In this document: in pieces, positions 2,273 to 13,540 of the stretch
How positions within the stretch are numbered: the stretch's first letter is position 1
Layout: every line of letters starts with the position of its first letter
Source of the DNA: a virus
Taxonomy: Duplodnaviria; Heunggongvirae; Uroviricota; Caudoviricetes
DNA length: 14,641 bases
IMG/VR virus record: IMGVR_UViG_3300012347_000520
Coordinates: 1 to 14,641 of that record
Strand: one strand, 5' to 3'
Program-made: the position numbers and the translations under genes
Notes under the pieces: model-generated
Databases searched by the model: none
The model's input: the letters and a program-made list of their open reading frames with translations, nothing else
What the model was told of the DNA's origin: nothing

Positions 2273-3253
2273 ATGATTATTAACAAACAACTTAAATCCA
2301 TCCCATTCGATAAACTTTACCACATGTATGAAGAAGCAGCCGCTTCTGCAATTGCTGGTATTGAATCACACATCCAATCCAAGTACGATGCAGAAGTAGA
2401 GCGCTTAGAACAAGCCTATACAGATACTCACGAAGCTCCTAGTGAAGTAGGTTTTGGCGATCAGGTCGTCAGAGAAACTTATAACGCACATGAAGTACGT
2501 CGCAGAGCAGGTAATAAAGCAATTACCGACACTTGGATCCCTCGCTACAAATTAGGGTCATTGCTAATTGCAGTAATGCCTCAGATTATGGCTTATATCA
2601 CTCAAAAACCTTTTAGATTATCTGAGGTTTCTACGGTTGAGGGTAAGTGGATTAATGGAAAAACAATGCTCAAGAACTCCTTTGATTTTACCAGTGACTG
2701 GGATCGAGGACTTTACTGCTTTTTAATGTTAGACTCGCGTTCAGCATATTTACCTACGCAGTACAAAGGTGAGGGCAGACAATTCTGTAGTTTAGTTCCG
2801 CTAATTCCTTATGCGTACAAACTACACCACAAAATTAACTACTCCCAGTGGGATCGTAATACCTTACACTGGGTCGTAAATCCTAGTTTGTGTAATGCTA
2901 TGTTATACATTCCTGACAAAGCATACACTCGTGAAGAGCTAATTCACGCTAGAGAGCTTGGTTTAGTTTACCAAACAGGTGCCAAAGCAGGTGAATCACG
3001 TAATCCAGTTTCTACTTTTAAACTTTGGGCTACTAAAGGCGGATGTATGTCTGGTGTTCCTGATCTTGCTCAAGTAATGTACACTCAAATCTGGTGTGCT
3101 CACCCACAAAATCGTTCGCACTACATGGTCTTAGACCCTAAACACTGGGACACTATGCCAACACCGCTTATTAGCGAAAACATCTTTATGCCTCCAGAAA
3201 TCAAAGTTTCACAGCCTCAATTCACAGGCCTAGAACTGCCATGGGAGGTTTGA
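2273..3253 (+). CDS. homologue of the T5 pre-early ~330-aa hypothetical protein (gene 10-like); function unknown
   Basis: Recalled similarity in SLVPL...INYSQW, RNP, QIWCAH..R..YMVLD...WD.MP and terminal LPW motifs; no SD sequence visible. Confidence 0.65.
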   Translation: MIINKQLKSIPFDKLYHMYEEAAASAIAGIESHIQSKYDAEVERLEQAYTDTHEAPSEVGFGDQVVRETYNAHEVRRRAGNKAITDTWIPRYKLGSLLIAVMPQIMAYITQKPFRLSEVSTVEGKWINGKTMLKNSFDFTSDWDRGLYCFLMLDSRSAYLPTQYKGEGRQFCSLVPLIPYAYKLHHKINYSQWDRNTLHWVVNPSLCNAMLYIPDKAYTREELIHARELGLVYQTGAKAGESRNPVSTFKLWATKGGCMSGVPDLAQVMYTQIWCAHPQNRSHYMVLDPKHWDTMPTPLISENIFMPPEIKVSQPQFTGLELPWEV

Positions 3254-3255
3254 GC

Positions 3256-3576
3256 ATGAAGTACACTAACGAATCAACCAAAAAATTAGTTGCCGACTAC
3301 CAAGCCGGAGTGACCGTCCAAGCCCTAGCCCAAGAGCTCGAGGTGCCAGAAAGATCAATAATTGCCAAGCTTAGCAGCCTCGGAGTCTACCAAAAAAAGC
3401 AGTACTTGAACAAACGCGGTGAGGTGCCAACAAAAAAGGCCGAACACATTGAAAGAATCGCAGAATTGCTTGAAGTTAACCTTGAGCTACTAGAATCACT
3501 AGAAAAGGTCAATAAACAGGTTTTAATTATGATCGAACAGAATTTAACAGCAAAATCTGACCCTAAACCGCAATAA
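3256..3576 (+). CDS. T5 A2/D3-like HTH DNA-binding protein, paralogue 1
   Basis: GGAGG RBS before ATG 3256; shares Y-x-AG-V-x-V...RS(I/V)(I/V)AKLS..GVY...KK...LESLEK with three other copies. Confidence 0.7.
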   Translation: MKYTNESTKKLVADYQAGVTVQALAQELEVPERSIIAKLSSLGVYQKKQYLNKRGEVPTKKAEHIERIAELLEVNLELLESLEKVNKQVLIMIEQNLTAKSDPKPQ

Positions 3577-3602
3577 ATTGCGTTAAATTGACTTAATCAA
3601 AC

Positions 3603-3639
3603 AAAAAGCCCGATATCGCAAGATATTCGGGCTTTTTTT
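3603..3639. terminator. bidirectional rho-independent terminator
   Basis: AAAAAGCCCGA-TATC-GCAA-GATA-T-TCGGGCTTTTTTT. Confidence 0.85.
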
Positions 3640-3768
3640 GGTCTGCGTTTTATACGGCAAATTGGGTGCTGAAAGCACCAACTAGCCCAATTTAGGCACA
3701 GCTTGATGCCGCTGCCAAAGGTTCTCAAAGTTTATACAGTTTAGGGTCAGAGTAATAGGAAAACCCAC

Positions 3769-3856
3769 TTGACAAAATCAGTTTAGTACTGGTATAATGG
3801 CGCGGATAGTTTAACCAAAACAAAAGCCCCCAAACTCGAAAGTAAGGAGGCTTTTG
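3769..3856 (+). promoter_or_regulatory. module M0 (divergent copy): promoter, GGCGC, hairpin
   Basis: TTGACA 3769-3774, 18-nt spacer, TATAAT 3793-3798, GGCGCG, AAAACAAAAG, stem CAAAAGCC(3821-3828)/GGCTTTTG(3849-3856). Confidence 0.7.
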
Positions 3857-3859
3857 AAC

Positions 3860-4650
3860 GCGCGTTTTTAACTCAACCTCAGGGCTTATAAAGCTGGTCT
3901 TCAGCCTGACCCTAAACCACGGTTACCTCGAGGGCACCATTACTGCTCGAGTTTACGGATACGGGGAGTTTTAGTTTTACGTCGGACGACGGCACGCAAA
4001 GCTTTTACAACCGGAGCGGCTTATGGTTGGGCTACAGTTTAGCCACTGCTACATGTGCTGCTCAAGTTTTATGACTTTGTGCAGTTTAGGGTCGGTGCGC
4101 TAGCGGGGTATCATCCCGCGTTACTGGCTAGGCCAGGTCTTAGATCAGATGATAGCGTCTGTATTTTATACTGTTCTTTCAGTTCCCAGTTTAGTCGTGA
4201 CCCGATCATAGCGGAGCGGGGCCTTAGGTATAGGGTAGGCTACCTAGGAGTTACTAGCTTCCATTCCAGCGTACGCGATGGCAGCTCATATGGGATTCGT
4301 CCTGACCCTAAACTGCGCCAGCGGAGTAGCGGGGAACTACTCGCACACTGGCCCGAGGCTTAGAGTTTCGCTGAAATTGCATCAGCTCATCAGAGGGATA
4401 GGGGGGCGGTGACTAGAGGCTTCGGTCACCATCAAGTTGTTATCTCTAGTCTAGGACTAGAGTCTCATAACACCAAAAAAAGTAGGGACAGCGACTCGAT
4501 TCGGCACTATTAAGACGCTATCAGCTTGCTATATGTTTTATGCTGTTCGCTGTCATCCCGTAAATAATTATAACACGAAACCGACTTTAGAAGAAAGTAA
4601 ATAATTTATAATGTTAGAGTCGGTTTCGGTTGTTATCTTGTTTTCGATAC
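3860..4650. other. ORF-free, GC-richer, multi-hairpin region (candidate structured RNA or injection-stop/origin-like DNA)
   Basis: Several stem-loops; three GACCCTAAAC sites; flanked by convergent promoters. Confidence 0.45.
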
Positions 4651-4654
4651 AATA

Positions 4655-4683
4655 ATTATATCAATAAAAAGGTCAAGCATCAA
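4655..4683 (-). promoter_or_regulatory. sigma70-type promoter with no downstream ORF
   Basis: Minus strand TTGATG-17-TATAAT. Confidence 0.6.
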
Positions 4684-4708
4684 GTTTAAATTTCTTGACC
4701 CTAAACCG

Positions 4709-5020
4709 TTAGTGTTTAACAGCTTTGGCAATCAGCTCGAGTGCATCTTTGGTAGCTTTTTCTAGAGACTCCAGCAATTCTTCGTTGGTACCAATAGCAA
4801 AGGCAATCTCTGCAATCAGCTCTGCTTTCTTTGGAGTTTGCTGACCTTTGGCTTTGGCCTTGGCTTGGTACACACCTTCGCGAGCCAGCTTTGCCACTAC
4901 TGATCGTGGGGATTTTTGCAAGCGTTGAGCAATTGCTTCTACAGTCTCGCCGCGTTGGTATGCCTCGACGACATCTTTGGTCATCTCGGGGGTATAGTTT
5001 TGTGCTTGTGCAGTCATCAT
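4709..5020 (-). CDS. A2/D3-like DNA-binding protein, paralogue 2
   Basis: AAAGGA RBS; own promoter; KSPRSVVAKLAREGVY...KKAELIAEIA...LESLEKATK. Confidence 0.8.
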   Translation of the reverse strand: MMTAQAQNYTPEMTKDVVEAYQRGETVEAIAQRLQKSPRSVVAKLAREGVYQAKAKAKGQQTPKKAELIAEIAFAIGTNEELLESLEKATKDALELIAKAVKH

Positions 5021-5203: not shown

Positions 5204-5230
5204 AAGCCAGTATCTCCTGTTGATGTAATA

Positions 5231-5259
5231 ATTATATCAAAATCAATTCTGCACTTCAA
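5231..5259 (-). promoter_or_regulatory. sigma70-type promoter for the 44-aa ORF
   Basis: TTGAAG-17-TATAAT. Confidence 0.75.
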
Positions 5260-5546
5260 ATAAATAAATTTCAAGTTGACACTGCACTAAGCCTGTAACA
5301 ACATGGTCAAATTTGCACTTGACTGCGCACTGGCGCGGCACCACTAAAAATTTAGAATTGCCACTTTCCCACTGGCGCAGCGCGCTTGTGTAGTACGAAA
5401 GTACTCTTTTTCATAATGTGGCAGACCGCTTCATCAGGTGAAATTTTATGGTAATTTTTAATTTTGCATCAATAATTATTGATTATTAATTACGGGCGTG
5501 GCGCAAGAATCATGCCAGAGTAAATTACTCGGATATAAAAAAATTC

Positions 5547-5639
5547 TTGACACCTGCCCCAAAATTGTGGTACAATTTTGGCGCCTGAAAATGAATACTT
5601 TTGTTTCCAATATTTTCTGGAAACAAAAGTATTCATTTT
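5547..5639 (+). repeat. module M1: promoter, -10 palindrome, GGCGCC, perfect 22-bp inverted repeat
   Basis: TTGACA 5547-5552, TACAAT 5571-5576; arms AAAATGAATACTTTTGTTTCCA 5588-5609 and 5618-5639. Confidence 0.9.
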
Positions 5640-5647
5640 TTAAGCAT

Positions 5648-5709
5648 AAAAAAACCCGCCAAAAGGCGGGGGAAATTCCAAACCCAAAAATTTTGGGTTT
5701 TGGTTTTTT
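5648..5709. terminator. tandem terminator hairpins, one per strand
   Basis: CCCGCC-AAAA-GGCGGG preceded by an A-run (minus strand); AAACCCAAAA/TTTTGGGTTT followed by a T-run (plus strand). Confidence 0.75.
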
Positions 5710-5721
5710 CATTTTTGATAA

Positions 5722-6063
5722 TTAAACGGGCTTAGAATTTGCCAATGCTTTAAAAATCTTTTCCAATGCGGTTTTATTCGCTTTAGTCAGTGATTCGGTT
5801 TCGGCTTCGGTCAAATTCAAAACCGCGCCGATTGCATCCGCGTGCGCGTCTTTGCGAACCACGGGTGCGCCCGTTTTGGTTTTGTATTCTTTAGCCTTAT
5901 AGACTTTTTCGCGTGAAAGTTTGGCCACAATAGAGCGGACAGATTTACCCAATTCAGCGGCGATTGTTTCCACGGCCACGCCCGCAGAATAATCGGCCAC
6001 CATTTTAGCGGTTTGTTCGGCGGTGTAGTTAACAGAACGGGCAGAGACAGATTTGCTAGTCAT
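5722..6063 (-). CDS. A2/D3-like DNA-binding protein, paralogue 3
   Basis: AAGGA RBS; TTGAAA-17-TATAAT promoter (6086-6114); closely similar to 10835-11158. Confidence 0.85.
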   Translation of the reverse strand: MTSKSVSARSVNYTAEQTAKMVADYSAGVAVETIAAELGKSVRSIVAKLSREKVYKAKEYKTKTGAPVVRKDAHADAIGAVLNLTEAETESLTKANKTALEKIFKALANSKPV

Positions 6064-6129
6064 TTTCGTTTTCCTTTAAAATTAAATTATAACACAGATT
6101 TTTCAGATTTTCAAGATTTTTTAAATTAT

Positions 6130-6342
6130 TTACAAATAATTTACCAAACCGATTACGTTAGCCAAAAAGAACACAGTTTGCAGAGCAATGTAATTCTTTT
6201 GTTTCTGCTTAATGGCCGAAACCATTAAACAAAAAGAACTCACAAAAAAGAACGGGTAACCAAATTGTGCGAACTTTAACGCTACCAAAAACGCGCCAAT
6301 AATGCCAGTTATTGTGCCAATGGTTTCAAGAATTTTTGTCAT
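6130..6342 (-). CDS. 3-TM protein resembling the N-terminal half of PnuC (nicotinamide riboside transporter family)
   Basis: LETIGTITG..L.A...YPF..VS...LQTVF..NVIG pattern; three hydrophobic helices. Confidence 0.55.
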   Translation of the reverse strand: MTKILETIGTITGIIGAFLVALKFAQFGYPFFFVSSFCLMVSAIKQKQKNYIALQTVFFLANVIGLVNYL

Positions 6343-6441
6343 TTTGTTTTGCTCGTTTGTTTTGTTTTGCTATGTGCCAATTATACCACCAAATCGGGGC
6401 AAAAAACACAATTAATAAAATAATTCCATTTAAAAATTGTT

Positions 6442-6819
6442 TCATCGTTTTATGTCCATTGTGTGAAAAGGGTCAGCCCGTAGGCCGTAGTTTACCATAA
6501 TTTCGCACCATTTTTCGCCGTGTCCCGTTTTATCTTCGCTTTCACCGAAAAGGTTAAAATCGGCTTGATGGATAATTTCGTGAGGCAAAATAACGTCAAT
6601 CATATTATAGCAGAATTTTTTGCTATGCGTAAAAAATTTGTACCCTAATTCGATTTTGTTGTTTTCTTGATCTGCCAAGCCAGCCACGCGCCACAACCTA
6701 CCATTTAGGCTAATTTCGGGGCATTCGTAAAAAGCCAAGGCGGGATAAATTTCGCAAAGCGAATCCCAAACCATTGTGGATTCACGTTTTAGCAATCGGG
6801 TTAACATCGTTTTGTCCAT
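6442..6819 (-). CDS. SprT-like zinc metalloprotease (likely leaderless start MDKT at 6819)
   Basis: ILPHEIIHQ (HEXXH)...GHGEKW..IM, the SprT signature; I.L..KF motif upstream. Confidence 0.8.
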   Translation of the reverse strand: MDKTMLTRLLKRESTMVWDSLCEIYPALAFYECPEISLNGRLWRVAGLADQENNKIELGYKFFTHSKKFCYNMIDVILPHEIIHQADFNLFGESEDKTGHGEKWCEIMVNYGLRADPFHTMDIKR

Positions 6820-6909
6820 GTAAAGATTATACAACAAAAACCGCAAAAAATCCGTTTAGATCATTGAAAAAATTAATCGGGGCAATAGTGAAAATTAATT
6901 GCCAAATGC

Positions 6910-7003
6910 TTGACACACCCCAAAATTATATGCTATAATTTTGGCGCCCCAAAATGTAATACTTTTGTTTCCAATATTTTCTGGAAACAAAAGTATTCAT
7001 TTT
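6910..7003 (+). repeat. module M2
   Basis: TTGACA 6910-6915, 18 nt, TATAAT 6934-6939, GGCGCC, ACTTTTGTTT 6961-6970 / AAACAAAAGT 6985-6994. Confidence 0.9.
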
Positions 7004-7017
7004 ATTTCGGGCAAAAT

Positions 7018-7039
7018 AAAAAGCCCCGAAGGGCTTTTT
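7018..7039. terminator. bidirectional terminator
   Basis: AAAAAGCCC-CGAA-GGGCTTTTT. Confidence 0.8.
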
Positions 7040-7046
7040 AAAAGTG

Positions 7047-7304
7047 TTAACTTTTGTTTCTGGTGGGTTTTATTTTGTAAAACAAAATAACCAAAAGAAA
7101 AATTAAATTCGCGGTATAGTTGAAAACCAAAGGCCACAAAAGGGTTGGCAAAACGTAAACAAAAGTAAACACCTCGCCCCAAAACCACATGGCCAAAAAT
7201 CCCCACGTAAGACCATCCGAATTTTTTACGCGGTAACTTTCCACGGCTTGAGGCAACCCACAAAACGCAAAAAGAATTGAACCCAGCCAGCCGATTGTTT
7301 CCAT
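7047..7304 (-). CDS. PQ-loop / SemiSWEET-like 3-TM protein
   Basis: IGWLGSILFAFCGLPQ...KNSDGLTWGFL...N pattern typical of a PQ-loop repeat. Confidence 0.8.
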   Translation of the reverse strand: METIGWLGSILFAFCGLPQAVESYRVKNSDGLTWGFLAMWFWGEVFTFVYVLPTLLWPLVFNYTANLIFLLVILFYKIKPTRNKS

Positions 7305-7435
7305 TTTTAGCCCCTATAAATTTCGTCTACCGTTATTGTATTATAACACGATTCAAAAATAAATTCATCCAATAATTTTTTATCGTTGTATAAATGCAAC
7401 AAAAGAGCAAAAACCCACAAATATCTCATTTTTTA

Positions 7436-7459
7436 AATGTAGGCCTTTCGGCCTACATT
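7436..7459 (-). terminator. stem-loop after the exonuclease gene
   Basis: Perfect 10-bp stem AATGTAGGCC/GGCCTACATT with a GAAA loop on the minus strand; U-tract short. Confidence 0.55.
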
Positions 7460-7466
7460 CTCCACA

Positions 7467-8165
7467 TTATTTAGCTTGAAAGTGGTCACGGGTTTGAAAT
7501 TCGCGCCAGTTGTAAGGTGTAACCTTTTGTTTCCAATCGCGTTTTTTGATAATTTCGCGTAAAATCGGCAATTCAAAATCCCGCGCATCTTCTAAAGCCG
7601 TATGGGGTTCGTCTTTAAATTCGCCAGTAATAAACCCACAAACGATCTCGGCGTTTGTCTTAAAAGTCATATTGCCAAATTCAGTTGGGGCATTGAACGC
7701 ATGATTTTCTAAGCAAAATTGTTTGAATTTTTTAGTATTGCAAACATTACCAACGGCGGCCTGCCACAAACAAAAGTTATCAGAAAAACCGTCTAAATTA
7801 ATGCTTGTGTTTGCACATTTTGATTTATCAAAAGCCAAATTGTAAGCGGTCAAAGTTGGGTTATACTTGCCAATGGCTTGATTAATCCAGTTATTGATTG
7901 CAGAAACAGAAGCTAACATTCTAGAACCAGAATTAAGCATATCGTTGTATTTTGCGCGTTTTTCCTTGGCATATTGCAAAGACCAAAGACCCTTTGCATT
8001 TTTATCATAAAACAATTCGTGCGCGTCAAATTGATCTTTTACCAATACCGCGCATTGATTGTAGATTTTGCCTTCGCGATCACAAATTACAATGGCAAAA
8101 TCTGCCACAGTGTCAGCGATAGTTGTTTCAGTGTCAAGAATTGCAAAGAATTGTTTTTTAGCCAT
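7467..8165 (-). CDS. DEDDh (DnaQ-like) 3'-5' exonuclease
   Basis: ExoI LDTETT, ExoII AYNLAFD, ExoIII HTALEDA. Confidence 0.88.
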   Translation of the reverse strand: MAKKQFFAILDTETTIADTVADFAIVICDREGKIYNQCAVLVKDQFDAHELFYDKNAKGLWSLQYAKEKRAKYNDMLNSGSRMLASVSAINNWINQAIGKYNPTLTAYNLAFDKSKCANTSINLDGFSDNFCLWQAAVGNVCNTKKFKQFCLENHAFNAPTEFGNMTFKTNAEIVCGFITGEFKDEPHTALEDARDFELPILREIIKKRDWKQKVTPYNWREFQTRDHFQAK

Positions 8166-8186
8166 TTTGTTTTCAATTTTGAAATA

Positions 8187-8234
8187 TTACCGAATCTGTC
8201 GGAATTCGCAGATAGTAGCGTTTTTCGCTACCAT
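8187..8234 (-). CDS. possible leaderless 15-aa uORF (MVAKNATICEFRQIR)
   Basis: TATAAT-N6-ATG; may equally be non-coding leader. Confidence 0.3.
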   Translation of the reverse strand: MVAKNATICEFRQIR

Positions 8235-8333
8235 GAAAAGATTATAACGCAAAAAGCCCAAAAAATCCGCTTCTACCAAAAATAAATGAAATATTTATTT
8301 TGTTGTTTTTTGGCGAAATTAGGGTTTACCCTA

Positions 8334-8417
8334 TTGACACCCGCGCAATTTTACGAGTAAAATTGGCGCCTTTGGAAACAAAAGTATTCATTTTCAAAAT
8401 GTAACCTTTTGTTTCCA
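8334..8417 (+). repeat. module M3, with inverted-repeat arms in swapped order
   Basis: TTGACA 8334-8339, 18 nt, TAAAAT 8358-8363, TGGCGCC; TGGAAACAAAAGTATTCATTTT 8373-8394 then AAAATGTAACCTTTTGTTTCCA 8396-8417. Confidence 0.88.
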
Positions 8418-8424
8418 AAAAAGA

Positions 8425-8444
8425 AAAGCCCCTCGCGGGGCTTT
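8425..8444. terminator. bidirectional terminator
   Basis: AAAGCCCC-TCGC-GGGGCTTT. Confidence 0.75.
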
Positions 8445-8446
8445 GT

Positions 8447-8923
8447 TTAGTGACCTTGCACGCTTGGCACGTACACGCCTCGAATATTAAAACGATCACA
8501 AACCGCTTTTAGATAACTAATATTATCTTCGTAAAAAACAAAATCAGCGTCTTTGAAAGTTACCAAATTAAAGAACTTTGTCAAGCCATTAATTTTTAAG
8601 GTTTTGCCTGAAATATCCGAACCTTGGGGGCGTGAGATAAAATAATCGGGAGCGCCTAAAATATCATCAACAAATTGCCAATCGGGTTCATTCATTACCC
8701 GCGCAGTTGCAATAATGACATAACAATTTTCGTCTTTTAAGTCTTGGCGGTATTGCTCAAACATTGGCAATAATCCATCATCCATAGCGCGGTATTCATT
8801 TTCGCGCCAGTGGTCAAGGTCAATGCGCGTGCCGTTTTCATCCGTGATTGTGCGATAACGGTGTGAAGAATCTACGATTGTGCCATCCATGTCATAAATT
8901 GCTACGCGGGTAATTTTAGCCAT
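8447..8923 (-). CDS. dmp: HAD-family phosphatase, T5 Dmp-like deoxynucleoside-5'-monophosphatase
   Basis: YDMDGTIVDSSHR, IIATAR, YEDN HAD motifs; recalled similarity to T5 Dmp (WDLDGTIINSFHR...IICTAR); AAGGA RBS. Confidence 0.75.
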   Translation of the reverse strand: MAKITRVAIYDMDGTIVDSSHRYRTITDENGTRIDLDHWRENEYRAMDDGLLPMFEQYRQDLKDENCYVIIATARVMNEPDWQFVDDILGAPDYFISRPQGSDISGKTLKINGLTKFFNLVTFKDADFVFYEDNISYLKAVCDRFNIRGVYVPSVQGH

Positions 8924-8967
8924 TTTGTTTCCTTGTTTAGAAGATTAGATTATACCACAAATTTTCG

Positions 8968-9090
8968 TCATTCAGACAAAAATTGCTCTAATGCGCCCAA
9001 ATATTCTAGCATATTTGCGAATTGTAAGCCGTGGCGATCACAAAAGCGATCAAAGCGGGCAATCTGTGTTTTAGTGTATTTTGTTTTCAT
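8968..9090 (-). CDS. 40-aa leaderless ORF, not in ORF track (MKTKYTKTQIARFDRFCDRHGLQFANMLEYLGALEQFLSE)
   Basis: TATAAT-CTACAC-ATG; fills the gap between dmp and M4. Confidence 0.65.
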   Translation of the reverse strand: MKTKYTKTQIARFDRFCDRHGLQFANMLEYLGALEQFLSE

Positions 9091-9180
9091 GTGTAGATTA
9101 TAGCGCAAAAAATGGCAAAAAGCCGTTTCGATCATTAAAAAAATTAATCGCCCCGATAGCGAAAAACAATCGGAAAATTC

Positions 9181-9268
9181 TTGACAAACCCCAAAATTAT
9201 GTGGTATAATTTTGGCGCCTGAAAATGAGAACTTTTGTTTCTCATTTTCTTTGCAAACAAAAGTATTA
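9181..9268 (+). repeat. module M4
   Basis: TTGACA 9181-9186, 18 nt, TATAAT 9205-9210, GGCGCC, ACTTTTGTTT 9231-9240 / AAACAAAAGT 9255-9264. Confidence 0.9.
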
Positions 9269-9460
9269 CAAATCGTAAACCTTCATTGTGAGATTTAATT
9301 GCACAAAATGGGTTTCTTGATTTATAAAATCAACAATTAGCAAAATCTCGCCATTGTAAAATAATCCCGTATTGGCTTTAATTTCATTTTTTGCCGCTTC
9401 TACGGTCTTGAATGAAGGCCAACCATATACGCGCCCCTTTGTGTTGAATACATCGTACAT
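9266..9460 (-). CDS. hypothetical protein (64 aa, start MYDV)
   Basis: TAA-AA-ATG coupling to the upstream gene. Confidence 0.65.
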   Translation of the reverse strand: MYDVFNTKGRVYGWPSFKTVEAAKNEIKANTGLFYNGEILLIVDFINQETHFVQLNLTMKVYDL

Positions 9461-9462
9461 TT

Positions 9463-9753
9463 TTAATCCCAAGTTTTAAATTGCATCATAAAATCACGGG
9501 TTTGCCCGTTGAATTTCATTTTCACCCATTCTGGGTTTTCTTCAATTTTAATAGGCATATTTTCTGTAATAAATTCCTCCAACATATTAAAAAACCAGTT
9601 AGGAATAACAACAAAAACCCAAACCAGTGGCATGATAACAAAAACGCCAAAAAAGAATTTTAGCACGTTTTGCCAAGAATAAAAGTATTTGAATTTTACA
9701 ATCTGCCAGTTAGCACGTTTGATCTGCCAGAATTTTTTAGTGAGAATATTCAT
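9463..9753 (-). CDS. membrane-anchored hypothetical protein (start MNIL)
   Basis: GAAGGG RBS; one long hydrophobic segment; TATAAT at 9785-9790. Confidence 0.7.
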   Translation of the reverse strand: MNILTKKFWQIKRANWQIVKFKYFYSWQNVLKFFFGVFVIMPLVWVFVVIPNWFFNMLEEFITENMPIKIEENPEWVKMKFNGQTRDFMMQFKTWD

Positions 9754-9754
9754 T

Positions 9755-10108
9755 TTAAGACCCTTCCATTGAAACAATGTCCACATTATAGCACGTCAAA
9801 AAGTGTTTTCGCCATATTTCAAATTCTTTTTCGTGATCTAGTTCTTTGTCGTTTTCCATTTGCCAAGCATGAACATATTCATGTGCCATTGTAGCAAATA
9901 GGTCGATCTGATCTTTAATCTCAGATGTAGCTAAACGGATAATGTGAAAATGCTTTTTAGCATTGATTCTATAACCCTCATACACGGCAAAGCACGAAGC
10001 CCCATCCATGCGAATCACGCGATTCTTACGAAAGTTTACGTGACTTTTTAATTTGAAAATGTCTTGCAACATTAGCTGGAATAAGCGTACATCAACGGAT
10101 CGAATCAT
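9755..10108 (-). CDS. zincin-like metallopeptidase (SprT-related)
   Basis: TMAHEYVHAWQ...DHEKEF (HEXXH plus downstream H). Confidence 0.7.
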   Translation of the reverse strand: MIRSVDVRLFQLMLQDIFKLKSHVNFRKNRVIRMDGASCFAVYEGYRINAKKHFHIIRLATSEIKDQIDLFATMAHEYVHAWQMENDKELDHEKEFEIWRKHFLTCYNVDIVSMEGS

Positions 10109-10109
10109 T

Positions 10110-10289
10110 TTAGTCTACCTGAATATCAATGATTTCTGTTTGTTCTGGGTTCACAATGTAATAAATTGTAAGATTGCCCGCAGAAGCCATGTATGTGTTT
10201 TCGCGTGTCTTTGTGACAGTGTGAAAAGATTTGAAGTCTAAAGCCACGGCTTTAGCTACGATTTCGGGGATTGTGTTTTTCGTTGTCAT
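10110..10289 (-). CDS. hypothetical protein (likely leaderless start MTTK)
   Basis: TATACT-N6-ATG; TAA-A-ATG coupling to the next gene. Confidence 0.65.
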   Translation of the reverse strand: MTTKNTIPEIVAKAVALDFKSFHTVTKTRENTYMASAGNLTIYYIVNPEQTEIIDIQVD

Positions 10290-10380
10290 GTGTGTAGTAT
10301 ACCCCAATTTTCCTCAGTTGTCCCCAATTCGCCATTGTTATTTTCTATTGCCCCGATTAATAAAAACAATCACAAAACGC

Positions 10381-10468
10381 TTGACAACCCCCAATTATAC
10401 GTGGTATAATTGGCGCGTCCAAAATGAGAACTTTTGTTTCTCATTTTGTTTCGCAAACAAAAGTATTA
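10381..10468 (+). repeat. module M5
   Basis: TTGACA 10381-10386, 18 nt, TATAAT 10405-10410, TGGCGC, ACTTTTGTTT 10430-10439 / AAACAAAAGT 10455-10464. Confidence 0.9.
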
Positions 10469-10780
10469 AAATAATACCCTTGTATCTTCTTCGTTAAGTG
10501 TAACGGGGTCGCCGTGTTTGGCTAATTTCAAAAGTTTTTGAGCGTGGTCAAGATCGCCCCAAGCATACACGGAACGCCACCCCCAACAGTCCGAATTATC
10601 AAGCGCCTTAATTGCTTGCTCCTCGGTCATGTAATAAAACCCGCGCCAACCTAATGCGCGCCGCGCCATGCGCTTTGCGATTGCTTTATCGTCTCGCGCT
10701 TTGCGATGCGCCTTGATGTGTTCAATTACATTTTCGCAGGCTTTGATAACCTTTGCGGATTCCATTACAATAGTTGCCAT
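10466..10780 (-). CDS. hypothetical protein (104 aa)
   Basis: AAGGG RBS; extended -10 TGaTATAAT at 10804-10809. Confidence 0.75.
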   Translation of the reverse strand: MATIVMESAKVIKACENVIEHIKAHRKARDDKAIAKRMARRALGWRGFYYMTEEQAIKALDNSDCWGWRSVYAWGDLDHAQKLLKLAKHGDPVTLNEEDTRVLF

Positions 10781-10812: not shown

Positions 10813-10833
10813 CAAAGGGGCATTGCCCCTTTG
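10813..10833 (-). terminator. hairpin after paralogue 4
   Basis: CAAAGGGGCA-T-TGCCCCTTTG. Confidence 0.6.
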
Positions 10834-10834
10834 C

Positions 10835-11158
10835 TTATTGCTTCTCAGCCTTGATAAAATCAGCAATTGCTTTCAATGCTGTTTTGTTGGCCTTGGTAAG
10901 CGAATCCGCATCCGCTTCGCTCAAGCCCAAAGCCTGTGCGATTGCGTCAGCAAATTCGTCTTTTTTAACAACGGCCTCGCCTGTCTTGGTTTTGTATTCC
11001 TTGGCCTTGTAAACCTTCTCGCGTGAAAGTTTAGCAACAACAGAGCGCACAGATTTGCCAAGCTCGGCGGCCATAGCTTCAACAGTTACGCCTTGCAGGT
11101 AGTCAGCAACCATTTTAGTAGTTTGCTCGGGGGTGTAGTTTACGGCTTTTGCAGTCAT
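10835..11158 (-). CDS. A2/D3-like DNA-binding protein, paralogue 4
   Basis: GGAG RBS; TTGCAT-17-TATACT promoter (11201-11229); ELGKSVRSVVAKLSREKVYKAKEYKTKTG nearly identical to paralogue 3. Confidence 0.85.
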   Translation of the reverse strand: MTAKAVNYTPEQTTKMVADYLQGVTVEAMAAELGKSVRSVVAKLSREKVYKAKEYKTKTGEAVVKKDEFADAIAQALGLSEADADSLTKANKTALKAIADFIKAEKQ

Positions 11159-11270: not shown

Positions 11271-11499
11271 TTGTATCATTCCTTGTTGCGATGGAATTAT
11301 TATAACGCATAAATCATAGAAAAACAAGATTATTTCAATTATTTTCTAGAGATAAACACCTATAGATTTTGTGCTAGTTTAGTGCTATAATGACTAGGGG
11401 CGGTTATTAGACTCAAGTTTTCACACACACGTGGGGGCCCTACCCCACGGAAAACTTCATAGATAATTCTCATAAACACACAAGGTGCTAAACTATAGC

Positions 11500-11570
11500 C
11501 TAACTGACCCTAAACTGCCCCTAACTACCCAATCTCACCAAACTACCCAAACCCCCCCAAACCTCCCTAA
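11500..11570. repeat. C/A-rich degenerate ~10-bp tandem tract
   Basis: C-runs at 11508, 11518, 11528, 11546, 11552, 11565; almost no G on the plus strand. Confidence 0.65.
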
Positions 11571-11581
11571 AAAAATTCAAC

Positions 11582-11630: not shown

Positions 11631-12137
11631 ATGACCCAATTACCCCAAACACAACCTACCTCTGCGCCTGCCGAGGTATTGCAAATTTCCCCTGAGAACC
11701 TGGAAATTGCCAACGCATTCCTGCAACTACAAGATTCACAAAAAGTTGCCTATGAGCTAGATATTCCCGTGGACATGGTTACCCGAGTTTTAGCCCGTGC
11801 CGAGATAAAGGCTTATGTTAACCAAGTTTTCTTTGAAGTCGGCTTTAACAACCGTTTTCAAATGCGCGAGCTTATGGATACCTTAATTAAGAAAAAGCTT
11901 CAAGACATGTCAGAGTCTGAAACAGGAAGCAATAAGGATATCTTAGATATTCTCGCTCAATCACATAAAATGACCATGGAGCTCATGGACAAAGAAATCC
12001 AGCTTGAAAAACTACGTGCTCAAAATGCAGCAGCCGGAATTAAGTCGCAAGTCAACGTACAAATCAACGAAGGACTCGGTGACGGTACCAAGTACGGTGC
12101 CTTAATATCCAAGTTGATTTCTGGAGAGTCTCAATAA
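11631..12137 (+). CDS. terS: terminase small subunit (T5-type)
   Basis: Directly upstream of terL; N-terminal HTH; recalled T5 TerS similarity (GF.NR, KKL.., DI.DIL..HKM, QVNVQIN). Confidence 0.8.
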   Translation: MTQLPQTQPTSAPAEVLQISPENLEIANAFLQLQDSQKVAYELDIPVDMVTRVLARAEIKAYVNQVFFEVGFNNRFQMRELMDTLIKKKLQDMSESETGSNKDILDILAQSHKMTMELMDKEIQLEKLRAQNAAAGIKSQVNVQINEGLGDGTKYGALISKLISGESQ

Positions 12138-13424
12138 ATGTTAACTATCTCTAGACCAGATGTTGAGCGCGAAGCAATTACAGAGTTTGCAGCTGACAAA
12201 CGATTTATTAAGCTGCCGATTACCAACTACCTTAAATTGCTAGGAATCTGGGAAACTATCAACGAGCCCCAAATTGCGTTAATTAACGCAGTCAACGACC
12301 CTAAGTACCGTTTTGTTTGTGCTGCCTTAGCACGTCGTCTTGGTAAAACTTATATTGCCAACGTTATCGGGCAACTAGTTACACTTGTCCCAGGTGCTAA
12401 CGTATTAATTATATCGCCAAACTACAACTTATCAACAATTTCGTTTGAGTTACAGCGTCGTTTAATCAAACACTTTGACTTAGAAATTTCTCGTGATAAC
12501 TTAAAGGATCGCATTATCGAGCTATCAAATGGTTCGACCATTAGAATGGGTTCGTTATCTACAGTGGATAGTTGTGTTGGTAGGAGCTATGACTTGATTA
12601 TTTTTGACGAAGCGGCTTTGGGAGCCGATGGTGAAGCCGCGTTTAACGTTGCCTTACGCCCTACACTAGACAAGCCTAATTCTAAGGCTATTTTTATTTC
12701 CACGCCTCGTGGTAAAAACAACTGGTTCTCCAGATTTTTTGAGCGTGGATTCTCGGCGGACTTTCCAGAGTGGTGTTCGATTACAGCTGACTACACAGAG
12801 AATGCTCGTATGGCTGAGTCGGACGTTGCAGAAGCTCGTAAGTCAATGTCAAAAGCTGAATTCGAACAAGAATACATGGCCTCATTTAATACGTTTGAAG
12901 GTCAGATTTATCAGCTTGAAGAGCAGCAGATCTTAGACTACGTTCCCTTAGACGGCGATGAATCTATTGCTGGCTGTGACCCTGGTTATCGTGATGCCAC
13001 GGCGTTTGTGGTATTAATCTACCAAACACAAACTGATAAGTTTCATGTGGTTGATGAGTACCTAAAATCCGAAGCTACCACAGACAAGCATGCTGAAGCG
13101 TTTCAGGAACTTATTTCTAAATGGGGCATAGATGCGATCTTTATTGACTCTGCAGCGCCACAGTTTGCGTCAGACTTAGCTTATCTTTATGACATTGCGT
13201 CAATTAAAGCTAAAAAAGACGTACTACCTGGAATCGCGTATGTTCAAACCTTAATCGAAACTGGTCGTTTAGTAGTTGCTCCACACTGTACACATACCCT
13301 AGCTATGCTAGACCAGTACCGCTGGGATACTCGCGAAACCTTGACTATGGAAAAGCCAATCCATGATGAATATTCTCACATGGCTGACGCGCTCCGATAC
13401 GCTTTGTATACTTATACTCTTTAA
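12138..13424 (+). CDS. terL: terminase large subunit (T5-type)
   Basis: Walker A ARRLGKT, Walker B LIIFDEAA, ISTPRG coupling motif, RNase H-like nuclease GCDPG...SHMADALRY. Confidence 0.96.
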   Translation: MLTISRPDVEREAITEFAADKRFIKLPITNYLKLLGIWETINEPQIALINAVNDPKYRFVCAALARRLGKTYIANVIGQLVTLVPGANVLIISPNYNLSTISFELQRRLIKHFDLEISRDNLKDRIIELSNGSTIRMGSLSTVDSCVGRSYDLIIFDEAALGADGEAAFNVALRPTLDKPNSKAIFISTPRGKNNWFSRFFERGFSADFPEWCSITADYTENARMAESDVAEARKSMSKAEFEQEYMASFNTFEGQIYQLEEQQILDYVPLDGDESIAGCDPGYRDATAFVVLIYQTQTDKFHVVDEYLKSEATTDKHAEAFQELISKWGIDAIFIDSAAPQFASDLAYLYDIASIKAKKDVLPGIAYVQTLIETGRLVVAPHCTHTLAMLDQYRWDTRETLTMEKPIHDEYSHMADALRYALYTYTL

Positions 13425-13511: not shown

Positions 13512-13540
13512 TTGACATTTCCCTGCTCCGGTGATATAAT
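13512..13540 (+). promoter_or_regulatory. sigma70-type (late) promoter
   Basis: TTGACA-17-TATAAT with TGa extension. Confidence 0.85.

Follow-up and report, generated by a model that had tools for sequence, protein, structure and literature searches.

Promoter-early stem-loop (PeSL) cassettes of T4-type phages (Arbiol et al. 2010, PMC2839356; Comeau et al. 2014, PMC4122927) combine near-consensus sigma-70 promoters and AT-rich upstream DNA with a stem-loop that lies mostly between the −35 and −10 elements or over the −10 (PMC2839356). The promoter-palindrome modules described here, which belong to a T5-like siphovirus rather than a T4-type phage, share the near-consensus TTGACA...TATAAT, the AT-rich upstream region and the placement of the stem-loop. 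In both systems many repeats lie between small accessory genes at cassette boundaries, gene content is shuffled between relatives, and the stem-loop sequence is lineage-specific. However, a PeSL promoter has the same orientation as the genes and leads into a Shine-Dalgarno sequence and an ORF, whereas the modules face all flanking genes and drive no ORF. The modules also differ in their spacer, which is 18 bp instead of 17 bp, in the invariant GGCGC that follows the −10, in having a second near-perfect palindrome, and in their AT-rich, perfect stems where those of PeSLs are polyG/polyC with G-T pairs.

Short terminated RNAs from strong constitutive promoters are also known in lambda, as the OOP antisense RNA, which converges on a neighbouring gene and is complementary to its 3′ end, and the pR′-6S RNA. 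pR′ is co-oriented with the downstream late genes, as the modules are with TerS/TerL. Unlike the modules, OOP and pR′ occur as one copy per lambdoid genome rather than as an array and have neither a palindrome over the −10 nor GGCGC; conversely, we identified no Q-like factor or pause element for the modules.

The injection stop signal (iss) and left terminal repeat regions of T5 (Davison 2020, bioRxiv 10.1101/866236) resemble the module block in being rich in repeats and palindromes, in lying next to the terminase end and in the presence of a Dmp homologue. The T5 iss, however, is a single ORF-free region of 1.2–1.6 kb that contains DnaA boxes; the modules are short units scattered among genes, and no A1 homologue was found in the clade, including in a relative rated 100% complete. 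T5 biology is not established for this clade, which weakens an earlier proposal, made from the sequence alone, that the modules are serial injection checkpoints; iss-like DNA is more likely to be represented by positions 3577–4708 and 5204–5546 than by the modules.

We searched the window (the whole 14,641-nt stretch analysed) and the rest of its 78.6-kb contig, which derives from a clade of uncultured freshwater T5-like phages, for exact matches to TTGACA-N16-19-TAnAAT-N0-5-GGCGC on both strands, with 200 dinucleotide shuffles as the null. The window contains six matches, all on the plus strand (at 3769, 5547, 6910, 8334, 9181 and 10381), compared with 0 in 200 shuffles, and no further copy was found in the rest of the contig. 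All six fit TTGACA-N18-TAnAAT-(T0-3)-GGCGC, for which the chance expectation is none, and they are the top six sigma-70 matches of the region, scoring 11–12 of 12. This bears out the plus-facing, non-coding modules described by the sequence-only reading, except that the T run it gave as 1–4 nt is 1–3 nt. The arms ACTTTTGTTT and AAACAAAAGT are likewise where it had placed them, 14, 14, 14 and 15 nt apart, and their order is swapped in the third module (M3). The ORFs between modules that show homology lie on the minus strand and include HTH paralogues, an SprT-like gene, a PQ-loop gene and a Dmp-like HAD gene. No Rfam family matched the module.

Each module has four parts: a promoter, palindrome 1 (over the spacer and −10), GGCGC and palindrome 2. 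The M1 promoter core (5547–5584) has its −35 at 5547–5552, a TACAAT −10 and GGCGC at 5580–5584; its palindrome 1 (5559–5581) reads CCAAAATTGT-GGT-ACAATTTTGG, and palindrome 2 (5588–5639) has perfect 22-bp arms and an 8-nt loop. M2 (core 6910–6947, palindrome 1 at 6920–6944, GGCGC at 6943–6947) continues into a long hairpin with a 1-nt bulge (palindrome 2, 6951–7003). M3 (core 8334–8369, palindrome 1 at 8346–8365, −10 TAAAAT, GGCGC at 8365–8369) is followed by the palindrome 2 with swapped half-sites (8371–8419). In M4 (core 9181–9218, palindrome 1 at 9191–9215, GGCGC at 9214–9218) the hairpin GAAAATGAGAA...TTCTCATTTTC at 9221–9249 is followed by TTTG and by a box, AAACAAAAGTATTA (9255–9268), that overlaps the stop codon (9266–9268) of the convergent gene 9266–9472. 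The same arrangement recurs in M5 (core 10381–10416, palindrome 1 at 10391–10413, GGCGC at 10412–10416), where the box (10455–10468) overlaps the stop codon (10466–10468) of gene 10466–10780 and the closing pair of the hairpin (10420–10448) is a compensatory change relative to M4. All these parts lie on the plus strand. The plus-strand copy at 3769–3803 (TTGACA-N18-TGgTATAAT-GGCGC), with a weak hairpin downstream at about 3821–3855, is present as first noticed; it is not a decayed module but a conserved non-palindromic subclass, with orthologues at the same place in relatives, adjoining the c20-c0 gene pair.

The design is conserved. Sixty-odd related IMG/VR contigs yielded 226 distinct module copies, all on the TerL-coding strand and confined to one block of about 8 kb upstream of the terminase genes. 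Five near-complete relatives likewise carry modules in a single block only, and a reversed-pattern control gave 0 matches. No analogous array was found in T5 or in Vibrio phage PG07, so there is no experimental precedent to borrow.

The modules are near-perfect sigma-70 promoters with an extended −10, and their activity is predicted from this match. Of the 226 copies, 211 have an 18-bp spacer and 167 a TGn before the −10; the DNA upstream is A-rich. Of the strong plus-strand promoters, 199/216 carry GGCGC after the −10, compared with 0/49 strong minus-strand gene promoters; the next base is A or C, after which the sequence varies. Gene promoters elsewhere in the contig have 17-bp spacers and A/T-rich discriminators, or AGG/AGA before structural operons. 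In T5, too, the discriminator is the main difference between promoter classes (PMC7472727).

Palindrome 1 varies in sequence yet remains symmetric within one genome (AAAATTGT, AAAATTATA, AATTTTAC and AATTATAC). Its perfect stem averages 8.0 bp, compared with 5.3 ± 0.12 if the two halves are taken from different modules, and reaches at least 8 bp in 62% of the plus-strand promoters versus 2% of gene promoters. Palindrome 2 is near-perfect (median 12 pairs) and starts 0–4 nt after GGCGC, whose position it follows rather than that of the −10. Predicted plus-strand transcripts of the window fold far better than shuffles (z −9.8, −10.4 and −6.1 for M1 to M3; −4.0 and −6.5 for M4 and M5), and the 70 nt downstream of modules reach −22.8 kcal/mol versus −10.6 for shuffles. 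Mismatches in palindrome 2 show no G.U strand bias (16 G.T versus 15 A.C), the fold energy is equal on both strands, many loops are only 2–3 nt, and a T-rich tail follows the first hairpin on the plus strand in only 52/226 copies. Given this strand neutrality and the tiny loops, a role at the DNA level suits palindrome 2 at least as well as one at the RNA level. Its sequence is similar among the modules of one genome but diverges from lineage to lineage, whereas the promoter persists: 77% of modules have a 9-mer in common with a second module on their contig, compared with 22% at TerL identity below 80%, and some lineages have a plain GC-rich terminator instead of the hairpin. This combination hints at a sequence-specific partner or gene conversion, neither of which is required if the modules are plain boundaries.

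From GGCGC to the stop codon of the convergent gene the median distance is 77 nt. In 143 modules, a GC-rich terminator between the two serves both strands in 45, the plus strand only in 26 and the minus strand only in 21, and is absent from 51. Terminators do follow M1 to M3 in the window, as had been claimed, but they are shared or bidirectional: the first hairpin after M1 (5655–5670) has its T tail on the minus strand and the second (5680–5700) on the plus strand, the symmetric terminator AAAAAGCCCCGAAGGGCTTTTT after M2 (7017–7041) has a GC stem flanked by an A run and a T run, and the minus-strand terminator of the Dmp-like cassette (8425–8444) has its T tail on the minus strand. A back-to-back leftward gene promoter, proposed for every module, was found for M2 to M5, where a minus-strand −10, 6 nt and an ATG lie 79–88 bp to the left; no leaderless-start neighbour is clear at M1. 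These −10 elements are TATAAT at 6831–6826 (ATG 6819, where the SprT-like gene starts without a leader, 79 bp from the −35 of M2), 8246–8241 (ATG 8234, a 15-codon leaderless ORF preceding a 232-aa gene), 9102–9097 (ATG 9090, a 41-aa leaderless ORF at 8965–9090) and TATACT at 10301–10296 (ATG 10289). Across the clade, 60/219 modules have a leaderless-gene promoter 56–79 nt to their left, versus 2 in the control.

Our preferred reading, to which we give a probability of roughly 0.4, is that the modules are a separately regulated promoter class acting as counter-promoter/terminator boundaries; they would yield short RNAs that are antisense or carry a 5′ hairpin, and recombination of the PeSL kind would be a by-product. 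The anatomy, its conservation, the strand rule, the promoter-class signature and the cassette rearrangements are observations, whereas we infer transcription, RNA ends, an insulating or silencing effect and its regulation as follows. Each module would be a working, very strong host sigma-70 promoter marked as a class by TTGACA, the 18-bp spacer, TGnTATAAT, the A-rich upstream region and the GGCGC discriminator, and a single module at the 3′ end of each minus-strand early cassette would fire against that cassette. Transcription would start within or just after GGCGC and run straight into the perfect palindrome; at about half of the modules the transcript would then meet the shared terminator. 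The product would be an RNA of 35–130 nt with a hairpin flush to its 5′ end or, where no terminator intervenes, an RNA antisense to the 3′ part of the gene that converges on the module. Hairpin or terminator and opposing polymerase may together keep transcription of one cassette from running into the next, and the special discriminator with palindrome 1 over the −10 may be a handle for switching counter-transcription apart from the gene promoters, for example in early-cassette shut-off. The direct-repeat core of about 38 bp would supply homology for cassette exchange, as proposed for PeSLs.

It is improbable that the modules are chiefly recombination units, that is, selfish or useful PeSL-like "mobile regulatory cassettes" whose conserved core mediates cassette gain, loss and reshuffling and whose transcripts have no function of their own. 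The PeSL-like anatomy (strong sigma-70 promoter, AT-rich upstream region, stem-loop over the −10; PMC2839356), the five to nine direct repeats of the core and the homogenised hairpins fit this idea, and M1 resembles the M2-type module of relatives (83–90%) more than it does the module occupying its orthologous position. Cassette order also differs between lineages, with two main orders among relatives and modules at the boundaries, which favours PeSL-like exchange at least as a side effect and lends that much to the recombination reading first proposed. In metagenome contigs, 4/4 large rearrangement joints end in a module (6904, 6979, 8394 and 9219/6909), but with a likeness of 85% and short sides these joints could be jumps of the alignment from one repeated module to another, and since modules lie at nearly all gene boundaries, breakpoints close by are expected anyway. 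Recombination alone leaves unexplained the strict strand rule, the invariant promoter elements, the class-specific GGCGC and the covariation in palindrome 1.

We also consider it unlikely that GGCGC is the clade's version of the T5 nick site, an interruption of virion DNA on the strand templating the minus-strand cassettes, between two fold-back palindromes. The nick rather than an RNA would then be the functional core, perhaps as a ligase-reversible stop for cassette transcription or as a primer or entry point for replicating the repeat, and the promoter would help to mark the site or open it. For major nicks of T5 the consensus is 5′-R/GCGCRGG-3′ (PMC3517423), annotated in AY543070 as "NPu pGCGCN"; all modules have G plus GCGC, a core of purine and GCGC common to both, and T5 nicks, like all modules, are restricted to the TerL-coding strand. 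The T5 nick at 9748 (ATTTGCACAAAA/GCGCAGGGCAATTGCCCT) presents a box, the nick and then a perfect palindrome, T5-like motifs resembling TTT(G/C)CACTG/GCGCAG (box plus GCGCAG) occur in the ORF-free stretch left of M1 in the window and in relatives, and the strand-neutral palindrome 2 is placed by GGCGC. However, T5 nicks are scattered genome-wide and untied to promoters, with an adjacent hairpin at 2/3 sites examined and none nearby at the third, whereas the putative nicks of the modules are promoter-bound and lack the RGG half of the consensus. GGCGC is not depleted on the plus strand of the contig (28 versus about 24 expected), 19 more copies lie outside module-like contexts, and a nick does not account for the near-invariant −35, 18-bp spacer and extended −10. 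To our knowledge, no nicking enzyme is known by sequence.

Quite unlikely, in our judgement, is a family of multi-copy, trans-acting stable hairpin RNAs that act very early in infection as a decoy or sponge of a host defence, nuclease or RNA-binding protein. No promoters in the region are stronger, a 5′-flush hairpin is expected to slow 5′-end-dependent RNA decay, the terminators after M1 to M3 predict RNAs of about 80–130 nt, and the homogeneity of the hairpins within a genome could reflect the demand of a common partner. Yet neither G.U asymmetry nor another RNA-strand signature is seen, so the decoy reading gains no specific support; from one lineage to another the hairpin is exchanged completely but the promoter is retained, the "RNA" of some lineages is a mere GC-rich terminator, and in about a third of modules no terminator stands between module and convergent gene.

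Very unlikely are palindromes that serve as operators or serial entry stops for phage DNA-binding proteins such as three to four A2/D5-like HTH paralogues: four HTH paralogues do lie within 8 kb (one marginally like T5 A2, E 0.04), the palindromes are perfect, short-centred and operator-like, the palindrome 2 families are lineage-specific and palindrome 1 occupies the classic repressor position over the −10, but palindrome 1 varies within a genome with its symmetry kept, as a structure would predict and a single sequence-specific dimer would not, two-step injection is only a supposition in the clade since A1 was not found, and the modules lie between genes, outside the ORF-free repeat region.

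The sequence-only reading had known of no described element with this architecture, which is too strong given the likeness to PeSLs; new relative to them are the GGCGC, the presence of a second palindrome and the orientation against the genes. The design of the modules is that of the T4-type promoter/stem-loop cassettes turned around.

The promoter-palindrome modules are genuine repeated units that occupy one block and one strand of the contig. Within the window, TTGACA-N16-19-TAnAAT-N0-5-GGCGC matches six sites, all on the plus strand (modules M1–M5 at 5547, 6910, 8334, 9181 and 10381, and a copy at 3769), with 0 matches in 200 shuffles. These are also the six best sigma-70 matches of the region (11/12 or 12/12), confirming the repeated promoters described in the sequence-only reading, and the hairpin arms lie where it had put them. 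Predicted module transcripts fold with z of −4 to −10 relative to shuffles. It had also proposed a scan of the whole genome; the 78.6-kb contig yields no copy beyond these six. The site at 3769, which it had treated as a divergent copy, does hold the promoter and belongs to a conserved subclass that is not palindromic. We gathered related loci via TerL and via the hairpin box and searched them with a slightly looser pattern, giving 268 instances, 226 of them distinct, in a search where GGCGC was required by the pattern itself; within each contig all lie on a single strand, that of TerL. Five long relatives (84–100% complete) carry 5–9 copies each in one block of 7–8 kb, again on one strand, with 0 matches to a reversed-pattern control.

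The surrounding genes are those of a T5-like phage whose closest kin are uncultured. The contig is rated 74% complete, and the window is the opening 14.6 kb of its 78.6 kb (IMG/VR). TerS (11631–12137) and TerL (12138–13424) are on the plus strand, as are the portal, protease/capsid and tail genes downstream; replication-type genes on the minus strand come next, with a tRNA-like sequence at the far end, and the region itself holds no tRNA or tmRNA. The closest cultured relatives by TerL, Vibrio and enterobacterial T5-like phages (Demerecviridae), reach only 45–50% identity, and more than 250 uncultured IMG/VR relatives reach 68–91%. Of the sequencing runs with parts of the region, most are metagenomes from freshwater or wastewater. 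Upstream of TerS, the minus strand of the block encodes three HTH paralogues, two SprT-like proteins and PQ-loop-like and NMN-transporter-like membrane peptides, with a fourth HTH paralogue on the plus strand. The four HTH genes lie at 3241–3576, 4709–5020, 5722–6063 and 10835–11158. The block also encodes a 158-aa HAD protein (8447–8923, minus strand) that aligns with the N-terminal part of T5 Dmp, the deoxynucleoside-5′-monophosphatase (38% identity over 85 residues, E 9e-16), and is about 90 residues shorter; this likeness supports the label "pre-early-like region." A 41-aa ORF (MKTKYTKTQIARFDRFCDRHGLQF...) at 8965–9090 on the minus strand is a separate cassette, located between the Dmp-like gene and M4, and small ORFs at the equivalent position in relatives make up gene cluster c19. 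Just upstream of TerS, 11400–11580 is C-rich, repeat-like and ORF-free (CTAAACTGCCCCTAACTACCCAATCTCACCAAACTACCCAAACCCCCCC...), contains a copy of the 10-mer GACCCTAAAC, and possibly lies near a genome end or packaging site.

The T5 DNA-transfer protein A1 is reported to be conserved among T5-like phages. No homologue of the T5/PG07 protein was found in this contig (74% complete) or in two relatives rated 96% and 100% complete, a search that a distant A1 could escape, and likeness to A2 within the block is marginal (E 0.04). Two-step injection in the T5 style can therefore only be assumed for this clade, which may inject its DNA differently or may carry an A1 diverged past detection.

Judged from their conservation, the modules are almost certainly functional sigma-70 promoters. 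The −35 element is TTGACA in 184/226 distinct modules and the −10 TATAAT in 189/226, the spacer is 18 bp in 211/226, TGn precedes the −10 in 167/226, and the upstream region is A-rich. An unbiased promoter scan upstream of TerL found GGCGC after the −10 in 199/216 strong plus-strand promoters versus 0/49 strong minus-strand ones. GGCGC is followed by A (109) or C (107), never by T, and then by variable bases. Gene promoters elsewhere in the contig have 17-bp spacers and A/T-rich discriminators, and those at 13512, 22123 and 33276 (plus strand), before structural operons, read TTGAC(A/T)-N17-TGATATAAT-AG(G/A), possibly a late-class discriminator unlike the TATT type of early genes and the GGCGC of modules. 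Given these distributions, the phage seems to have promoter classes told apart by discriminator, as also described for T5 (Klimuk et al., PMC7472727). A genome-wide role for GGCGC, for instance as a Chi-like site, was rejected: outside the block it is neither over- nor under-represented.

Each typical module adds two palindromes to its promoter. Palindrome 1 spans the spacer and the −10 in the form CC-AAAATTAT-(TGn)-ATAATTTT-GG, with many covarying versions. Its perfect stem averages 8.0 bp, versus 5.3 ± 0.12 when left and right halves are exchanged between modules, and is at least 7 bp in 169/226; stems of at least 8 bp occur in 62% of plus-strand promoters versus 2% of minus-strand gene promoters. 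A minus-strand promoter hidden in palindrome 1 was considered and dropped, as its −10 arises by symmetry and has no acceptable −35 or TG. Palindrome 2 begins 0–4 nt past GGCGC and has a median of 12 Watson-Crick pairs and loops of mostly 2–5 nt. Its very few mismatches are split between G.T (16) and A.C (15), and fold energy is equal on both strands. We could not assign the hairpins to one RNA strand by G.U asymmetry, the first hairpin showing none; a slight minus-strand bias over 70 nt probably stems from cassette terminators. A hairpin anchored to the transcription start was likewise rejected, since T-run length and hairpin offset do not compensate (Spearman 0.01). For M4 and M5 the arms had been placed correctly, but the minimum-free-energy fold takes a different hairpin, GAAAATGAGAA/TTCTCATTTTC, whose closing pair shows a compensatory change between the two modules; in both, the AAACAAAAGTATTA box overlaps the stop codon of the convergent gene.

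Modules sit where minus-strand cassettes end. All flanking genes with homology lie on the strand opposite to the modules, and the stop codon of the convergent gene is a median of 77 nt past GGCGC. Among 143 modules scored for a GC-rich terminator in this interval, 45 have one for both strands, 26 for plus only, 21 for minus only and 51 none, so that 71/143 have a plus-strand-competent terminator ahead of the convergent stop codon. The terminators reported after M1–M3 are present, but as terminators shared with the convergent minus-strand cassettes or belonging to them. We found no conserved plus-strand ORF after the modules, the short ATG frames being interrupted in M2 and M3 and lacking in other lineages. 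Small peptides were rejected: ATG frames follow GGCGC in M1, M4 and M5 (MNTFVS.../MRTFVS...), the frame stops at once in M2 and is inverted in M3, and other hairpin families have none. Long plus-strand ORFs in GC-richer relatives, candidates for module-driven genes, proved to be antisense artefacts, since homologues of the proteins encoded on the window's minus strand map to the minus strand there by tblastn. To the left of the module, a minus-strand −10 (TAnAAT) is followed after 5–8 nt (mostly 6) by ATG in 60/219 modules versus 2 in the control, 56–79 nt from the module's −35. At M2–M5 these pairs lie at 6819–6831, 8234–8246, 9090–9102 and 10289–10301 (minus strand), each ATG 6 nt past the −10 and opening the first ORF of its cassette, and the early mRNAs of those four cassettes are, from this spacing, probably leaderless. 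What repeats is thus a hairpin together with a divergent promoter region, as the 147-nt repeat 6810–6956/9081–9227 illustrates. Modules do not mark every cassette boundary, since a symmetric terminator (CAAAGGGGCATTGCCCCTTTG) at 10813–10833 lies between two minus-strand genes with no module.

The promoter core is retained across the clade, and palindrome 2 falls into lineage-specific families (the GTATTC box, GAATACCTGAGTATTC, ATAAGGGTTTACCCTTAT, TATAAGC..GCTTATA and plain GC-rich terminators). A module shares a 9-mer of the palindrome 2 part with another module of the same contig in 77% of cases; for contigs with TerL identity under 80%, the figure drops to 22%. The window's M1 resembles the M2-type module of relatives more closely than it does the module in its orthologous position. 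The sequence-only reading had suggested checking whether cassette content varies at module boundaries; the gene clusters occur in two main orders, c10-c4 / c9-c7 / c6 / c8 / c0-TerL and c8-c7 / c9-c6 / c10-c4 / c0-TerL, with modules at the boundaries (slashes) in both. When relatives' contigs are aligned to the window, the core is common and sequence diverges on either side of it. Four large joints in relatives' metagenome contigs each end in a module, a weak hint of rearrangement there because repeats can misplace such alignments and modules flank nearly every gene.

We favor, at a probability of roughly 0.4, the interpretation that the modules are counter-promoter/terminator boundary elements, a separately regulated class making short 5′-hairpin or 3′-antisense RNAs. 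It explains why they sit at cassette 3′ ends and obey the strand rule, and why terminators are shared and the discriminator is private. In convergent orientation the modules resemble cis-antisense RNAs of the lambda OOP type, which run from their own promoter into a gene's 3′ end; module transcripts might reach that far chiefly where no terminator intervenes. GC-rich discriminators and over-long spacers shorten open-complex life, as in stringent and in supercoiling-sensitive promoters, so module promoters could differ from gene promoters in their response to DNA topology or a phage factor. None of the RNA runs contains the region; runs labelled RNA-Seq are metagenomic contigs of relatives and have no bearing on strand or ends.

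Explanations at the DNA level are kept alive because the palindromes are perfect and strand-neutral, are tied to GGCGC and are homogenised within genomes. The most interesting, though improbable, is that each module embeds in its promoter a strand-specific T5-type nick site (G/GCGC) between two fold-back palindromes; nicks on the cassette template strand would stop or time transcription at cassette ends in a way that ligase could reverse, and polymerase would be loaded there by the opposing promoter. T5 nicks read R/GCGC, and the modules share the purine and GCGC core. In T5 (AY543070) the minus strand carries both the nicks and TerL, and likewise all modules are on the TerL-coding strand; one T5 nick is followed immediately by a perfect palindrome. 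The RGG found directly 3′ of GCGC in the T5 consensus is missing from the modules. Unlike the T5 injection stop signal (iss), a single extended stretch without ORFs and rich in repeats where the terminal repeat ends inward, the modules are ~90-nt units parted by genes. Elsewhere in the window, the TTTGCACTTG/TTGCCACTT boxes of ORF-free 5280–5400, together with its two CACTGGCGC(G/A)G motifs (GGCGC at 5332 and 5374), resemble the major T5 nick context ATTTGCACAAAA/GCGCAGGG in the iss; at the equivalent position relatives carry a complete subclass promoter, which looks deleted in the window (TTGACTGCGCACTGGCGC). Downstream of the 3769 promoter, 3860–4708 (~0.8 kb) is ORF-free, GC-richer and structured, has no Rfam match, and could be the equivalent of the T5 iss/repeat region, or else a long noncoding RNA. 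If the nick reading were true, it would give a function to the long-unexplained nicks of T5-like phages and tie them to transcription.

A second rival is that the modules make trans-acting decoy RNAs. A third is recombination modules like the promoter-early stem-loop cassettes (PeSLs) of T4-type phages, which also combine a near-consensus sigma-70 promoter and AT-rich upstream region with a stem-loop over the −10, an intergenic array and a tie to cassette shuffling (PMC2839356, PMC4122927). A PeSL promoter runs in the direction of the flanking genes, with a Shine-Dalgarno sequence and an ORF downstream, whereas the modules point the opposite way and drive no ORF, so they lack this PeSL feature; GGCGC, the second palindrome and the T5-like siphovirus setting are further departures. 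Only terminator look-alikes matched in cultured phages (megablast, blastn), a comparable array was found neither in the T5 LTR nor in Vibrio phage PG07, and Rfam 15 gave no family at gathering score, only chance-level hairpin matches far below threshold. The array, absent from these sources, appears to be a variation on a PeSL-type design. Protein-bound operators or checkpoints are a fourth rival. Late-gene promoters with Q-like antitermination are a remote possibility: co-orientation with TerS and TerL is their sole fit, M5 is separated from TerS by the terminator at 10813–10833 and three antisense genes, and no such factor was identified.

If the boundary interpretation is true, the first-expressed genes of these phages would be insulated, and perhaps switched off, by an opposing array of super-promoters and not by terminators alone. 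The modules would then offer a compact natural design for transcriptional insulation, with promoters marked by their discriminator, and a new handle on the timing of early gene shut-off in T5-like phages, and PeSL-type modular shuffling would extend from T4-like to T5-like phages. Under either the boundary or the nick reading, one promoter scaffold in 226 natural variants offers a ready data set for the study of spacer palindromes and discriminators.
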